In this document: piece after piece, positions 18,259 to 62,283 of the stretch
Position numbering within the stretch: position 1 is the first letter of the stretch
Layout of the letters: each line of letters begins with the position of its first letter
Assembly (NCBI GenBank): GCA_965205015.1
Contig: OZ242029.1
Span: forward strand, 3,808,001-3,872,000
Length of the DNA stretch: 64,000 nt
Source: Candidatus Poribacteria bacterium
GTDB lineage: Bacteria > Poribacteria > WGA-4E > WGA-3G
Direction of reading: 5' to 3'
Program-made: the position numbers and the translations under genes
The notes under the pieces: model-generated
The model's input: the letters and a program-made list of their open reading frames with translations, nothing else
What the model was told of the DNA's origin: nothing
Database searches by the model: none

Positions 18259-19005
18259 ATGAATACCTCTTCAAAACCATCATCAGAGTTTGCCCCAGGG
18301 CAAATTGTTTCTTTGAAAGCGGATCCCTCTATTCGGGGTGCTGTCGTTGCGGTGTTCCCGAGCACACCCGAAAACCGAATTAACGTTTTTGCTGGTGGTA
18401 GAATTCAGAGTTTTCGCGCTTCTCAGTTGCAGGTGAGCGCGGCTTCAGATATTGTCAACCGGGTTATTGATGCACCGCCTGAGACAATTGCGCGTGTTGA
18501 AGCGTTGCTACAATCCTCGAAGGGAAAGAGCGATGGTTGGGATGCCGATCAACTCCTCAGCGAGCGTTTCGCACAACCTGTCCGCGTTATTACGTATACA
18601 GGCATAAAGGATCTATCGAAAGTCAAAACGAAGTCTTATCTACTCAGGGGGGTGGATCCCAACGGGGACAGGATTCAGATCGCGAAACTTCAGATTTTAT
18701 TCGCGTTTCCTAAAGAGAAGATGCCGGATCTGAAACCCCACGTGAAAATCCGGGCACCCTTGAAAGCACAGAACCTTCAACCGCTTGAAGAGCCAAACGA
18801 GCGGTTCCATGTAGATGACAAGCTTCTTCAGCAGGCGCGGAAGGATAAATCTAACGTCAATATTGTCACACGGACAGGACATGTGTTGGACGGATGGATC
18901 CAACATTTTGACAAGTATGTTCTCTATATGCGGGTCGGCGGGAAGGTCGTGGTTGTGTACCGACATGGTCTGTTTGAGTTCACTATTGGGGAGTCATCGG
19001 ATTAA
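18259..19005 (+). CDS. multidomain protein with C-terminal Hfq/Sm-like domain
   Basis: C-terminal LLQQARKDKSNVNIVTRTGHVLDGWIQHFDKYVLYMRVGGKVVVVYRHG follows the Hfq Sm1/Sm2 (YKHA) pattern; N-terminal SH3/Tudor-like segment. Confidence 0.65.
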   Translation: MNTSSKPSSEFAPGQIVSLKADPSIRGAVVAVFPSTPENRINVFAGGRIQSFRASQLQVSAASDIVNRVIDAPPETIARVEALLQSSKGKSDGWDADQLLSERFAQPVRVITYTGIKDLSKVKTKSYLLRGVDPNGDRIQIAKLQILFAFPKEKMPDLKPHVKIRAPLKAQNLQPLEEPNERFHVDDKLLQQARKDKSNVNIVTRTGHVLDGWIQHFDKYVLYMRVGGKVVVVYRHGLFEFTIGESSD

Positions 19006-21771: not shown

Positions 21772-22464
21772 CTATTCGGAAGCGATCTCAATAAATGCCT
21801 CAAAGAGTTTACGTCGGTGTTCCTGAAAACCGGGGGTTTCAAGCATCCGCTCTGGATGGTACTGCACACCCAATACAAACCGCTTTGATTTGTTTTCCAT
21901 CGCTTCGATAATCCCTTCCCTTGTCCGTGCTGTTACCTCAAACCCCTCACCTTTCTCTCTCACCGCTTGATGATGGGCGGAATTGACTTCGTCTGTGCGT
22001 TTACCCGTGATTCGATTGAGTCGACTGCCCGCGACAATCTCAATTGTGTGCCGAGAATCCACATTGTTTACCTGTGATTGACATGATGCCTCTTTTGGGA
22101 ATTCCGAGGGTATATCTTGATATAGGCTGCCTCCCATTGCGACGCTCATAATTTGAATACCGCGACAGATACCAAAAACGGGAAGGTCATCTGCTATTGC
22201 CTTTTGACAGAGCGGTATTTCCAGTGCGTCGCGATCTTCGCTAACGTTGTACACCGCTGGATGCCATTCTGCATCAAAATTGTCTGGATGAATATCGCCA
22301 CCGCCTGTTAGCAAGAGTCCATCAATATCAGCGTAAGCATCTTCTGATATGTCGGGGTACAGCGTCCGAGGTATGCCACCAAACTCTTTAATCGCACGAA
22401 TATAGTTATTAGAAGGATCGTCCTCAATATTTTCGACAAACGTGATTCCGATAATTGGTGCCAT
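21772..22464 (-). CDS. peptidase C26 / gamma-glutamyl-GABA hydrolase family glutamine amidotransferase
   Basis: GLLLTGGGD, FGICRGIQ, NSAHHQAV and GVQYHPE. Confidence 0.9.
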   Translation of the reverse strand: MAPIIGITFVENIEDDPSNNYIRAIKEFGGIPRTLYPDISEDAYADIDGLLLTGGGDIHPDNFDAEWHPAVYNVSEDRDALEIPLCQKAIADDLPVFGICRGIQIMSVAMGGSLYQDIPSEFPKEASCQSQVNNVDSRHTIEIVAGSRLNRITGKRTDEVNSAHHQAVREKGEGFEVTARTREGIIEAMENKSKRFVLGVQYHPERMLETPGFQEHRRKLFEAFIEIASE

Positions 22465-22736
22465 ATATGAAAATCTCCTTTTAAGTCGTTTTTCTTTACA
22501 TAGATTATACTCCATTTTAAAGTTAAATCGCAAACTGATCAGCGGTATTGAGTCGTTACCTATGGGTTGGGTTGAACGGGGGAAAGCGAAGGCTTATCAA
22601 TACGAAGAAAATCAGCCTCTAAAAAAATCCTCCGTGAAGCCTCTGTGAATTGTACCCATCAGAAGTATCTCGAGTTAAGAGTCAGGATTCGGAGATCCCT
22701 CCTACAAGGAGTGTTTTGGATAGAAAAAATAAAACA

Positions 22737-22765
22737 TTGACAATATTATGCCGTTGTGATATAAT
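22737..22765 (+). promoter_or_regulatory. consensus sigma70 promoter (extended -10) for the moeB-like gene
   Basis: TTGACA-17-TATAAT with TG preceding the -10. Confidence 0.85.
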
Positions 22766-22849
22766 TGTGTAAGTGCAAGAGACAAAAATTTATGGACAAG
22801 AATATGAAACTCGGAGCCTCATATTCCTTCTCCGCAGGAGAAAATTTTT

Positions 22850-24037
22850 ATGAAATCCTATAGGCAAATCGTTGAAGAAGCGAAAACAGAAATACCAGAA
22901 GTAACTGTTGACGAGGTGAAAGACGAACAGGACACAGACGGCGATTTCGTGCTACTCGATGTGCGGGACGAAGATGAATATCGCGCGGGTTATATCCCGA
23001 ACGCCGTGCACGTCACACGGGGCATGCTGGAATTCTCGGTTGAGAACTATATTCCCGATCGAAACCAAAAGGTTATCATCTATTGTGCGGCAGGCCTCCG
23101 TTCGCTCCTCGCTGCCAAATCCCTACGTGAAATGGGTTATACCGATACCGTCTCTCTTGCGGGTGGATATCGCGATTGGATGGCGGCGGGTTACCCGACT
23201 GCACAAGATAAACCGATGAGCCATGAGCAACTCGATCGTTACAGTCGCCACTTTATGCTCACGGAGGTCGGGGAACAGGGGCAAGCGAAGCTCCTCGATG
23301 CTAAAGTTTTAATGGTTGGCGCAGGCGGATTAGGTTCACCCGCGGGTGTGTATCTCGGTGCTGCAGGTGTTGGACACCTCGGGATTATCGATTCCGATGT
23401 TGTCGAGCTCAGCAACCTCCAACGTCAGATCCTTCACCGCACAGAATCCGTCGGTACACCGAAGGTTCAATCCGCGACAACGACAATTAAGTCGTTGAAT
23501 CCAGATATTGACATCACACCGTATAATCTCCGCTTGACTGCGGATAACGTTGAAGATATCTTCTCGGAATACGACCTGATCGTTGATGGATGTGATAACT
23601 TCGCGACCCGTTATCTTGTCAATGATGCCGCTGTGTTGATGAACAAGCCGGTTGTTCATGGCAGTATTTTCCAATTTGAGGGACAGGTAACGCTCTTTAA
23701 ACCGCACGAGGGACCGTGCTACCGATGCATGTATCCGACACCGCCCCCGCCGGGCATGGTGCCCAGCTGAAGCGAAGCCGGTGTCCTGGGCGTGCTCCCA
23801 GGCGTAATTGGTGTTATGATGGCAACCGAAGCGATTAAATACATTATCGGTATCGGTGAACCCCTTATCGGTCGGCTCATCCTATACGACGCACTCAGCA
23901 TGACCTATCGCGAAATGAAAATCAGTCGAGATGAGAACTGCCCACTTTGCGGGGATAATCCCGTCATTACGGAATTGATTGACGATTACGATGCCGCAGC
24001 GGAAAATCCTGATACCTTTGCCCCCGCTGCCGATTAA
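22850..24037 (+). CDS. moeB: rhodanese-MoeB/ThiF (E1-like adenylyltransferase) fusion, probable selenoprotein (TGA codon 307 = Sec)
   Basis: Rhodanese loop YCAAGLRS; RYSRH, GAGGLGSP, SNLQRQ and CYRC; PPPPGMVPS-TGA-SEAGVLGVLPG continues in frame to CPLC; 395 aa if read through. Confidence 0.85.
23782..23804 (+). promoter_or_regulatory. candidate bacterial SECIS hairpin
   Basis: CCTGGG-CGTGCT-CCCAGG stem-loop with GT in the loop 21-26 nt after the TGA, plus a bulged T at 23784. Confidence 0.6.
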
Positions 24038-24086
24038 CCCTTAGCACTCGATCCTGTGATCGAAATGACTCCGAGGAGGAAGGTAT

Positions 24087-24329
24087 ATGCTACCTTGCCC
24101 TGATTGTAATAATCCATTGACACAGTTTCCAATTGAACAGGACGATGTAGATCTCGTCAGTTGTGACAGTTGTTACAGTGTTTTGCTTGTTTATCCGGGT
24201 GACGATCTTGAGCGCGTAGATAACGTCACTTTTGATGACCTTGTTGAGGCATACGGCACTGAGTATCCGATTGATGTGGATCCAAGTACAGTCGAACTCC
24301 CTGAAGAAGTCGAAGACGCCTTGATGTAG
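24087..24329 (+). CDS. small acidic zinc-ribbon protein, LysW-like
   Basis: CPDC..CDSC, very acidic, ends ELPEEVEDALM; strong RBS GAGGAGG. Confidence 0.75.
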   Translation: MLPCPDCNNPLTQFPIEQDDVDLVSCDSCYSVLLVYPGDDLERVDNVTFDDLVEAYGTEYPIDVDPSTVELPEEVEDALM

Positions 24330-25182: not shown

Positions 25183-26649
25183 CTAAACTTCCGAGACGAA
25201 AACCCAATGCTTTAGCTTTGGGATACAGTCTCGCCCTCTTGGAAAGGACCAAAGCGTTCATTTTTTGTTTGACGTTTGGTCCGAAAGTGTGGTATAATGA
25301 GAATATCAAGTTGGACCGACATATACAGCATAACCGCAAGGTTACGTGTCGGTCCCACCCACTGTATAGGGGTTAAAGACTTGAGACTTGAGAGTCCATG
25401 CGAAACACGACACATAAACTTTTCAAGGATAGGACGTTGCGTCACTTGCACGACGATTGCAATATCTGTGGTGTTGTGAAAAATCACTTCTTGGCACTCT
25501 GCATGCGATATTACCGCCGCTATGGTAAAGGACTTTCGTATCGGAAAATGTCCAAGCATCTGACGAAACTCAAGAAACTTGAGAAATACAAGCATTGGAA
25601 TATCCCTTACTCTTGGGCGTTGCAAAATGTACTAAAACGGTTAGCACAAACTTTTCGTGAAATGAAAACATTGGGCAGAGGTCACCCGAAGTTCAAGTCG
25701 TGTAAGAAACACAAAGGGATGACGTTTCGGGGTGAACAGGTCAAGCTTGAAAAAGTCCTGGATAAGCAGAAAAACGAAAGAAACCATCCGACGTATAAAA
25801 TCCGCCTGAACGGACGTTGGTATCGTTTCGCCCTGCATCGTGAAATCGAAGGCGAAATCATCCAAGTTCACGTAACGAGGGACGCACTCGGTGATATGTA
25901 TATTACGTTGACGGAAGACTTTACCGAAATCAAGATCGAACCCAAGACGGGTCAAGCTGAAGGGTTCGATATGGGTATCAAAGACTTCCTGATTGACAGT
26001 GGTGGACACCGAGAGACCTCTCCAATGTTCTACAAACTCAATGCCAAGAAGTTGGCAAAAGCACAAAAGGCGTATTCCCGCAAGGTCAAAGGGTCTCACA
26101 ACCAAGAACGCGAACGCAAGACGGTTGCGCGTATCCACAAGAAAACGACGAACCAGCGAGCAGACCACCATTGGAAACTTGCGATAAAGTTGTGTCGCAA
26201 GTTCGATATTCTGTTCTTTGAAGACCTGAACCTTGAAGGGATGAAACGCTTGTGGGGAAAACAAGTGTCTGATCTCGCCTTTGGTGAGTTCCTGCGGAAA
26301 CTCAAGCACCAGTCTCATAAGCGTATTCGCTCCGTGCTAAAAATCAATCGCTGGTCGCCAACGACAAAATGCTGTTGTGTTTGTGAACATAAAAACGAAA
26401 ATCTCACGTTAGCAGATCGTCACTGGACGTGTCCAAGTTGCCATACACACCTTGACCGCGACCAGAACGCTGCGATGAACATTCTTAAGGAAGGGGTAGC
26501 TTCCTTTAGGTTAGGAGTCGTAAGACCGATCGTCCTATTCAATAGGATTGTCGGCACCTCCGTTGAATCTAACCACCCGATTCTGAATTCTACAAATGCT
26601 TCTGCATAACGATTGCAGAAGCCCAAGTCTTTAGACTTGGGTCTATCAC
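25183..26649 (+). mobile_element. IS200/IS605-family element, TnpB only (IS1341-like)
   Basis: Left hairpin CGAGAC..AACCCAATGCTTTAGCTTTGGG..GTCTCG; related right hairpin CCCAAGTCTTTAGACTTGGG followed by TCTATCAC; no tnpA. Left boundary approximate. Confidence 0.8.
25398..26609 (+). CDS. tnpB: RNA-guided endonuclease TnpB
   Basis: RuvC residues GFDMG, FFEDLNL and DRDQNAAMNI; Zn finger CCVC/CPSC; promoter TTGACG-18-TATAAT at 25269-25298. Confidence 0.95.
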   Translation: MRNTTHKLFKDRTLRHLHDDCNICGVVKNHFLALCMRYYRRYGKGLSYRKMSKHLTKLKKLEKYKHWNIPYSWALQNVLKRLAQTFREMKTLGRGHPKFKSCKKHKGMTFRGEQVKLEKVLDKQKNERNHPTYKIRLNGRWYRFALHREIEGEIIQVHVTRDALGDMYITLTEDFTEIKIEPKTGQAEGFDMGIKDFLIDSGGHRETSPMFYKLNAKKLAKAQKAYSRKVKGSHNQERERKTVARIHKKTTNQRADHHWKLAIKLCRKFDILFFEDLNLEGMKRLWGKQVSDLAFGEFLRKLKHQSHKRIRSVLKINRWSPTTKCCCVCEHKNENLTLADRHWTCPSCHTHLDRDQNAAMNILKEGVASFRLGVVRPIVLFNRIVGTSVESNHPILNSTNASA

Positions 26650-61083: not shown

Positions 61084-61638
61084 TTATGGCACAAGCGACT
61101 TTGTCTCGTCAACAATCCAGCGAGCCTCAGCTATTCGTGCAGATGCTTCTGATAATTCCGGTTGATAGGTCGCAAATTTCACCTTATCACAGTTGGTGAG
61201 CACGTGTCGCGTCCGTTCAATGTATGGTGTGGCTATTTCAGCACGTAGCATCGCCTGAAGTAATCCTGTCGTTGTCAATTCCAACGCTGGAATTTGATAA
61301 CGTGCATCGATATATTGGCGGAGGACATAAGCAATTTGGGTATGATAGGTCTCCATGTCGCCACGCGTTAACCAATCAGCGGCTTCAATTGCCGTCAGTT
61401 TCTCGTAGGCTACCTCATGTGCCAACGGTATATCATTCTCATCCGTTGCAGGGACAGGCGGCGGTTGACGGCGTTTTTGGAGAGAATACCATACCCAAAT
61501 AGATGCCAAACCGAGTATCGCTGTACCACTGATAAAATAAGGCAGTAGGTTCTGCGACATTTCTAAGGGCGGTTTGATGTCGCGTAGGTTTTGCCCTCCT
61601 AAAGTCCCCTGCATAAGTATTTGTATAAGTACAGACAT
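61084..61638 (-). CDS. BatD/DUF4381-like membrane protein
   Basis: LRDIKPP, TM helix, LRQYI..Y..ALELTT and DKVKFA. Confidence 0.75.
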   Translation of the reverse strand: MSVLIQILMQGTLGGQNLRDIKPPLEMSQNLLPYFISGTAILGLASIWVWYSLQKRRQPPPVPATDENDIPLAHEVAYEKLTAIEAADWLTRGDMETYHTQIAYVLRQYIDARYQIPALELTTTGLLQAMLRAEIATPYIERTRHVLTNCDKVKFATYQPELSEASARIAEARWIVDETKSLVP

Positions 61639-61692
61639 ATTTCTTTCGGAAAGATGCGACGGACAATCAGATATATCCGGAACCGGGACATT

Positions 61693-62283
61693 TCACTCAG
61701 CGAGAGGTTGAATAACTATCGACTTTGGTGAAGTTGGACAGGCGTATTGACATACCCCACATCCTGTACATCCGGCATCAATAACCTCTACAATGTCATC
61801 TGACGTGAATTGAATTGCATCCTCGCCAATCGGACACGTATCGACACAGTAAGTACAATCCACATCTTGCGTCCGAAGACAGGTTTCAGCGCTGAAAACC
61901 GCCACACCGATTTTAATATCTTCGGCATAAACGGTTTGCAAAGCACCGCTGGGACAAACGTACATGCATGCCAATGAATCGCAAATGACGCACGGCTGTT
62001 CCTCAGGATCGATATAGGGTGTATTTGCGATATCGGGTTGGGAGGTCTGTAACGGGAAAATAGCGTTTGCGGGACAATTCTTGACGCAGTTGCCACACCG
62101 GTGGCACTTTTCTAAGAATTCCACTTCCGGCAACGCTCCGGGCGGTCGAAAGAGCGGACGGTTCCCCGGTTCCTCAGCAGGCACATGGTCGCTGATCCGG
62201 TCATCAAGGAATTCGGCGACCGGTTGGATGAGTTGGTTCAAGGCTTCCTTGAAAAAGCCGCGTCTCCCCGTTTCATCAGGCAT
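61693..62283 (-). CDS. MauM/NapG-like multi-[4Fe-4S] ferredoxin
   Basis: RRGFFK, RPPGA..EF..CHRCGNCVKNCP and further Cys clusters. Confidence 0.88.
   Translation of the reverse strand: MPDETGRRGFFKEALNQLIQPVAEFLDDRISDHVPAEEPGNRPLFRPPGALPEVEFLEKCHRCGNCVKNCPANAIFPLQTSQPDIANTPYIDPEEQPCVICDSLACMYVCPSGALQTVYAEDIKIGVAVFSAETCLRTQDVDCTYCVDTCPIGEDAIQFTSDDIVEVIDAGCTGCGVCQYACPTSPKSIVIQPLAE

Follow-up and report, generated by a model that had tools for sequence, protein, structure and literature searches.

An in-frame UGA in a rhodanese-MoeB fusion gene of Candidatus Poribacteria almost certainly encodes selenocysteine

What does a lone TGA codon mean in the middle of an otherwise open rhodanese-MoeB fusion gene? 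The gene lies in a 64-kb stretch of Candidatus Poribacteria DNA (64,000 nucleotides, contig OZ242029.1, positions 3,808,001 to 3,872,000), hereafter the window. Under the standard table 11, its open reading frame (ORF), 22850-23770, stops at the TGA at 23768-23770, and the same frame then stays open to a TAA at 24035-24037. The translation around the TGA reads PPPPGMVPS-stop-SEAGVLGVLPG, and the second Zn motif, CPLC (Cys364/Cys367), follows further downstream in frame. An earlier note, made from the letters of this DNA, had proposed that the ORF track splits one gene at this TGA and that the frame runs on to CPLC, and the gene is built exactly in this way. We conclude that the UGA almost certainly encodes selenocysteine (Sec) at a catalytic-cysteine position. 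We are highly confident, from sequence evidence, that 22850-24037 is an intact gene for a rhodanese plus MoeB/MoeZ-like E1 enzyme, a Sec-containing sulfur-carrier-protein activating enzyme of this sponge symbiont.

The predicted product joins a rhodanese domain to a ThiF/MoeB adenylation domain (Table 1). The cysteine that the earlier note expected in the rhodanese part is Cys79 (codon TGT, 23084-23086) in the catalytic loop CAAGLRS; Cys79 and Arg84 are invariant in all 76 aligned sequences. The adenylation domain carries a GxGxxG motif (G157/G159/G162) and four Zn cysteines, C290/C293 on the 5' side of the TGA and C364/C367 on the 3' side. These glycines, D181, R192, K205 and the four cysteines are likewise invariant in 76/76. 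With C substituted for U307 for scoring, NCBIfam NF006444, the equivalog for MoeB with an N-terminal rhodanese, matched residues 5-383 with 539.2 bits (cut-off 449). Scores with the models of MoeZ (NF005902, 403.1 bits, cut-off 647), moeB (TIGR02355, 227.9, cut-off 376.55) and thiF (TIGR02356, 253.7, cut-off 275.25) all stayed below their thresholds.

A scan of species-representative genomes yielded 80 related loci, comprising 72 Candidatus Poribacteria metagenome-assembled genomes, three entries named 'uncultured bacterium', one Nitrospinota genome and four loci from Myxococcales, Syntrophobacterales and Binatia. Aligning orthologues, as the earlier note had advised, showed TGA at the codon in 76 of these; the remaining four, from Myxococcales, Syntrophobacterales and Binatia, have TGC. 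The closest locus (L001) shares 98% identity at the protein level and about 91% at the DNA level, and by sequence the window represents a Poribacteria lineage distinct from the scanned species representatives. Of the 175 genomes searched in the phylum Poribacteria, 169 had a match at E <= 1e-60 and 152 an orthologue-level match at E <= 1e-160. Exactly one TGA was found in each of 150/150 orthologues among the matches listed, and two further orthologue-level genomes (G063, G065) lie outside these 150. Because the two genome sets overlap, the counts from 80 loci and from 175 genomes are not independent.

The sequence beyond the TGA behaves as coding sequence. Over 84-88 codons downstream of it, dN/dS ranged from 0.03 to 0.21 in nine pairwise comparisons (dS at least 0.84, saturated or nearly so), and by this measure the segment is under purifying selection. 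Moreover, residues 123-368 align with residues 4-248 of E. coli MoeB in a single stretch that runs across the TGA. TGA also terminates 15 of the 50 window ORFs that are 200 aa or longer; it is therefore an ordinary stop here under the standard genetic code, in line with the earlier note, which had seen no global code change. The codon itself is bridged by contigs from one independent DNA run, with 0 differences, and from two RNA-library runs. No change at 23768-23770 is among the differences listed for these contigs, which lends weak support on the point of the read check that the earlier note had asked for; RNA libraries may contain DNA, and the contigs speak for presence across the codon, not for expression level.

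Bacterial selenocysteine insertion sequence (SECIS) elements follow a 16-37 nt spacing rule. In the window, the hairpin stem begins after 14 nt from the UGA, and 20 nt separate the UGA from the loop. The hairpin consists of CCTGGG (23785-23790), the loop CGTGCT (23791-23796) and CCCAGG (23797-23802), lying 15-32 nt past the A of the TGA. RNAalifold added an optional G23783-C23803 pair and left U23784 bulged, so that the hairpin, its GT-containing loop and its bulged T are all as the earlier note had described them. The 6-bp stem and the 6-nt loop CGUGCU agree with the published criterion for bacterial SECIS elements, as given in the available part of PMC1088965.

More importantly, the codons of this hairpin are frozen at synonymous positions. 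The gene has 198 conserved codon columns with 4/6-fold degeneracy; their synonymous entropy averaged 1.52 bits, and only six of them fell below 0.3 bits: Ser codon 306, directly before the UGA, and codons 312-316, which form the stem and loop (0.1-0.2 bits). None of 100,000 gene-wide permutations gave a 5-column window as low as codons 312-316. Poribacteria also carry a Cys paralogue of the enzyme (P0002), which served as a comparison. Among 30 loci of the Sec form, the hairpin codons had 0.12 bits versus 1.04 elsewhere; among 30 loci of the Cys paralogue, of comparable divergence, the equivalent codons had 0.94 bits versus 1.09 elsewhere, and no hairpin. The constraint therefore tracks the UGA, not the peptide, and these sequence comparisons indicate that selection on the hairpin RNA exceeds the protein requirement. 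In the alignment of related loci, 99.3% of cells were paired and all changes were wobble-compatible (U-A to U-G, C-G to U-G, G-C to G-U). Thus, both the TGA and the hairpin are conserved in relatives, on which the earlier note had made its proposal depend.

The machinery for Sec insertion was tested in five related genomes, four from Poribacteria and one from Nitrospinota. All five carry a tRNA-Sec (75-78 bits with the Rfam model, cut-off 47), called tRNA-SeC with anticodon TCA by ARAGORN, and all five carry selA, selB and selD above curated cut-offs. In the phylum Poribacteria, selA was found in 162 of the 175 genomes and in 146 of the 152 carrying the Sec form. Taken together, the phylum-wide TGA, the purifying selection past it, the freeze of the hairpin codons and this machinery bear out the selenoprotein proposed in the earlier note. 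As a separate observation, selD of related Poribacteria and Nitrospinota genomes (L099-L103) itself has one in-frame TGA, in the context KCAG-U-ASKL, with a hairpin starting about 10 nt later; the hairpins after the selD UGA in these relatives and the hairpin of the MoeB gene are at a similar distance and have no sequence in common.

Table 1. Features of the rhodanese-MoeB locus (window coordinates)
Feature	Position	Strand	Description
Sigma-70-type promoter (predicted)	22737-22765	+	TTGACA, 17-nt spacer, TG-extended TATAAT; 12/12 consensus matches
Small hairpin in the 5' untranslated region	22828-22842	+	6 pairs, loop of 3; GGAG Shine-Dalgarno in 3' arm; then AATTTTT, ATG
Selenoprotein coding sequence, complete (predicted)	22850-24037	+	395 codons, U307, stop TAA 24035-24037
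Rhodanese domain	22904-23185	+	Residues 19-112, PF00581, E = 4e-20
ThiF/MoeB adenylation domain	23240-23944	+	Residues 131-365, PF00899, E = 1.2e-86; spans TGA
UGA as selenocysteine codon U307 (predicted)	23768-23770	+	Crossover loop of E1-like domain
SECIS-like hairpin	23783-23803	+	G23783-C23803 pair, bulged U23784, 6-bp stem, 6-nt loop
80-aa zinc-ribbon ORF	24087-24329	+	CPxC...CxxC, acidic tail; about 50 nt past moeB stop; possibly co-transcribed

If the UGA mostly terminated translation, the gene would yield a rhodanese-MoeB cut short at 306 residues and perhaps, as a second product, an 81-aa peptide starting at the GTG at 23792; Sec read-through would be minor or absent. Bacterial Sec insertion is often in competition with termination, and public gene calls contain exactly these two ORFs, as a 306-aa cluster of 656 members, including 'molybdopterin biosynthesis protein MoeB [Candidatus Poribacteria bacterium]', and an 81/73-aa cluster of 289 members named 'hypothetical protein'. 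The earlier note had expected automated pipelines to mis-call the gene as a pseudogene, and in this it was mistaken, as the calls give two separate proteins instead. However, the Zn site requires C290/C293 and C364/C367 from both sides of the TGA, all invariant, and the E1 fold aligns in one stretch across it. The TGA stands exactly on the Cys column of homologues that are single proteins, the GTG at 23792 lies inside the hairpin loop, and the hairpin codons are frozen in the TGA form only. We therefore consider predominant termination very improbable. Since hundreds of public calls cut the enzyme in two, it enters metabolic reconstructions of sponge symbionts as a broken sulfur-relay enzyme.

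Even less credit is due to the idea that a changed code or a suppressor tRNA makes the UGA stand for Trp, Gly or Cys. The inserted residue is predicted from sequence, which leaves room for such a reading, but TGA ends 15 of the 50 long ORFs in the window, and the residue of homologues at this column is Cys, which makes the classic Sec/Cys pair. Moreover, the relatives have a dedicated tRNA-Sec(TCA) with selA, selB and selD, and the local hairpin is under selection. The least probable explanation, to which we give next to no weight, is a nonsense mutation or an assembly error, that is, a pseudogene. Such an event in one genome would look like this, with one in-frame stop and the rest of the gene intact; however, independent assemblies have the same TGA at 76 of the 80 loci, as do 150/150 orthologues among the matches listed, the low dN/dS extends past the stop, and the contig of the independent DNA run crosses the site with 0 differences. 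On this sequence evidence, the pseudogene reading is already refuted by conservation. Incorporation of Sec at UGA307 thus remains the reading that we prefer.

What could Sec do at this position? In alignments to solved structures, U307 falls on Cys184 of ThiF, on Cys202 of Chaetomium Uba4 (chain index 200) and on Cys187 of E. coli MoeB, the last being the equivalence given in the earlier note. According to the available part of PMC7527816, Uba4 first binds Urm1 as a thioester on Cys202, a crossover-loop residue, and the rhodanese persulfide then attacks; Cys202 also shields the enzyme from self-conjugation during oxidative stress. The available text of PMC12954526 also supports the crossover-loop thioester at Cys202. 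For ThiF Cys184, an acyl disulfide with ThiS is described in the part of PMC12596934 at hand.

We infer the following course for the poribacterial enzyme. SelB with Sec-tRNA(Sec) would bind the hairpin, and Sec would be inserted at UGA307. By likeness to Uba4 and ThiF, the adenylation domain would adenylate the C-terminal glycine of a ThiS/MoaD-type carrier. Sec307 would then take the role of Uba4 Cys202 (thioester) or of ThiF Cys184 (acyl disulfide) and form a selenoester or an acyl selenenylsulfide. Sulfur from the persulfide on rhodanese Cys79 would complete the transfer, and the carrier thiocarboxylate would be set free. Selenium may make this step faster and the site less easily inactivated irreversibly by oxidation. 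Each of the related genomes has four ThiS/MoaD-family carriers, one of them adjoining MoaE, and none of the four lies near the rhodanese-MoeB gene.

Several results weigh against the selenoprotein interpretation or the chemistry proposed for it. ARAGORN found no tRNA within the window. The folding energy around the hairpin is unremarkable, with a minimum free energy of -19 kcal/mol versus -19.6 +/- 2.8 kcal/mol for shuffled sequences (z = 0.20; 111 of 200 shuffles at least as stable). No base pair had compensatory double changes in the alignment of related loci, and strict proof by covariation is thus lacking, because the stem sequence is too invariant. Rfam gave no family match in the region, and a permissive scan of 22700-24100 returned two chance-level matches, neither of them to a SECIS or riboswitch family. 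In GC-rich genomes, Cys orthologues likewise fold hairpins here, in shifted registers, because the peptide GVLGVLPG (Leu-Gly...Pro-Gly) tends to encode CUGGG...CCNGG; the hairpin by itself is therefore not diagnostic. As for the chemistry, Cys187 of E. coli MoeB is dispensable, and the catalytic weight of residue 307 in this subfamily is therefore not assured. Neither carrier nor pathway could be read from the neighbourhoods of the gene, of the Cys paralogue and of a Binatia Cys orthologue. In addition, the available part of PMC12954526 reports that the Uba4 thioester promotes thiocarboxylation yet is not essential to it.

The hairpins of the Cys orthologues suggest, from sequence, that a structure already in place was recruited as the SECIS. 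We put forward two linked claims for a 'seleno-E1', namely that Sec307 is the catalytic nucleophile, forming a selenoester or acyl selenenylsulfide with a ubiquitin-like carrier and that the SECIS was recruited from fold-prone codons; together they are a tentative proposal that we regard as rather doubtful. To our knowledge, a selenoester or acyl selenenylsulfide with a ubiquitin-like sulfur carrier has not been described for any E1-like enzyme. Recruitment of fold-prone codons, if true, would explain why the same change from Cys to Sec appears in several phyla, here in Poribacteria and in a single Nitrospinota genome. If the proposal holds, Poribacteria would maintain two enzymes with divided tasks, a Sec form that carries a rhodanese domain and a Cys paralogue that lacks it.

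This Cys paralogue occurs in the same Poribacteria genomes as the Sec form (e.g. G001, L109/L112) and is a 268-aa protein with the motif PSCQEAGV and the C-terminus EFCEVRW. Its adenylation domain is 61% identical to that of the Sec form and has the same Zn and crossover-loop motifs, whereas its codon is TGC/TGT and it has no rhodanese domain, hairpin or synonymous freeze. It matched at E <= 1e-100 in 165 of the 175 genomes of the phylum, a tally that may include cross-matches to the Sec form, and 150/150 best among the matches listed were full-length and without a stop. In Nitrospinota, 45 of 51 genomes have an orthologue; one has TGA, and the other 44 of the 45 have no stop, from which we take them to have Cys at this codon. 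A tree of 22 adenylation-domain sequences placed its ten Poribacteria Sec forms in one clade with support of 99/99. The Nitrospinota Sec form found no settled place among the Nitrospinota Cys forms, and a single origin appeared in 34% of bootstrap trees; one or two origins are therefore both possible. Eight Nitrospinota loci (L146-L153), missed by the motif pattern, were left out of this tree.

These comparisons add to what was known of the family the near fixation of Sec-MoeB across Poribacteria, the retention of a Cys paralogue and a measure of the footprint that the SECIS leaves at synonymous sites. They also provide a clean natural experiment, with the Sec form present in at least 150 species-level genomes beside its Cys paralogue and the orthologues of neighbouring Nitrospinota nearly all Cys.

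Upstream of the gene, the perfect consensus promoter reported in the earlier note is indeed present, with all 12 positions matching and a TG-extended -10 element. Of the 79 upstream regions examined, 49 have an exact TTGACA-N16-18-TATAAT no more than 135 nt before the start. The hairpin in the 5' untranslated region was listed as terminator-like, and similar sequence is visible upstream in several relatives; from its sequence, it is a possible translational or attenuator element. The stretch similar in sequence to relatives L001-L003 starts at 22716-22726, a little before the promoter, and synteny with all 81 related loci breaks at about the same place (around 22716). The genes further upstream, encoding a peptidase C26/GATase (21772-22533, minus strand), a PorV-like protein and an AAA ATPase, had no tblastn match in any of the 81 loci.

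On the other side of the gene, the zinc-ribbon ORF directly follows the moeB stop in 48 of the 81 loci and is about 79% identical in a clade whose MoeB is 71% identical. The ORF is missing in 28 loci of the TGA form, of which 27 have at least 3 kb of downstream flank, and another Poribacteria clade lacks it. Its match to PF13453 (Zn_ribbon_TFIIB) reached 18.6 bits, below the cut-off of 22. We treat this ORF as a neighbour, with a role in the selenoprotein system that is only putative.

Other features of the window and its relatives stand apart from the enzyme. In related strains, many contigs from metagenomes and metatranscriptomes begin or end exactly at the invariant SECIS stretch (23780-23814), which is probably an assembly-graph effect of sequence common to co-occurring strains. 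The segment 25180-26934 holds an IS605-family TnpB-like ORF (25398-26609, plus strand) with OrfB_IS605 and Cas12f1-like TNB domains; it has no DNA match in the closest relatives tabulated (L001-L005) and, by sequence, looks like a lineage-specific insertion between a 236-aa ORF and the gene for an FG-GAP protein. A 248-aa ORF at 18259-19005 (plus strand), unusually long for Hfq, has Hfq as its sole Pfam match, at the C-terminal end (residues 187-238, E = 2.9e-10). A second candidate for a recoded TGA, at 61084-62283 on the minus strand, was rejected, being a ferredoxin-like ORF with an ordinary stop followed by another ORF.

How does the poribacterial enzyme relate to known systems? By sequence, the gene is a further member of the MoeB selenoprotein family, predicted since 2005. 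According to the available parts of the reports, this family was one of 15 first reported from the Sargasso Sea by Zhang, Fomenko & Gladyshev, with 11 sequences (PMC1088965), and was found again in GOS 2008, with 19 sequences filed under pfam05237 (PMC2398784). It also appears in what is available of the prokaryotic selenoprotein reviews of 2022 (PMC9312934) and 2026 (PMC13188914), and the accessible part of an Olavius symbiont study treats MoeB as a known selenoprotein family. The accessible parts of these surveys, reviews and the Olavius study do not name Poribacteria for MoeB selenoproteins, and the supplements may hold Poribacteria entries. We take pfam05237 to be MoeZ_MoeB, covering the region around Sec. 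Sec would be at the same column here as in the published family. The gene resembles those of the 2005 and 2008 reports: it encodes a ThiF/MoeB-family enzyme, its in-frame UGA stands where homologues have Cys, and a stem-loop comes after the UGA; those reports are lists, and the comparison is with their text. As seen in part, a 2017 sponge-microbiome paper has selA and selB in symbiont bins, and a 2026 paper counts Poribacteria among the phyla having Sec hydrogenases. Our literature search found no paper on a sponge-symbiont selenoproteome and, as the earlier note had anticipated when it mentioned Sec-MoeB from marine surveys, no functional study of Sec-MoeB; more than 20 years after the family was predicted, its chemistry is still without one that we could find.

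With E. coli ThiF and MoeB, the enzyme shares the fold, the Zn tetracysteine site and the crossover loop, but these proteins have Cys in place of Sec and no fused rhodanese domain. With Uba4/MOCS3, the eukaryotic Urm1 activator, it shares an E1-like adenylation domain fused to a rhodanese with a catalytic Cys, and U307 occupies the Cys202 column. In Uba4/MOCS3 and in the MoeZ type, however, the rhodanese domain is C-terminal, whereas here it is N-terminal, and Uba4 has Cys where the poribacterial enzyme would have Sec. By analogy, the gene product may work like the adenylyltransferase-sulfurtransferases of the MoeZ/Uba4 type, although it is not a member of that group.

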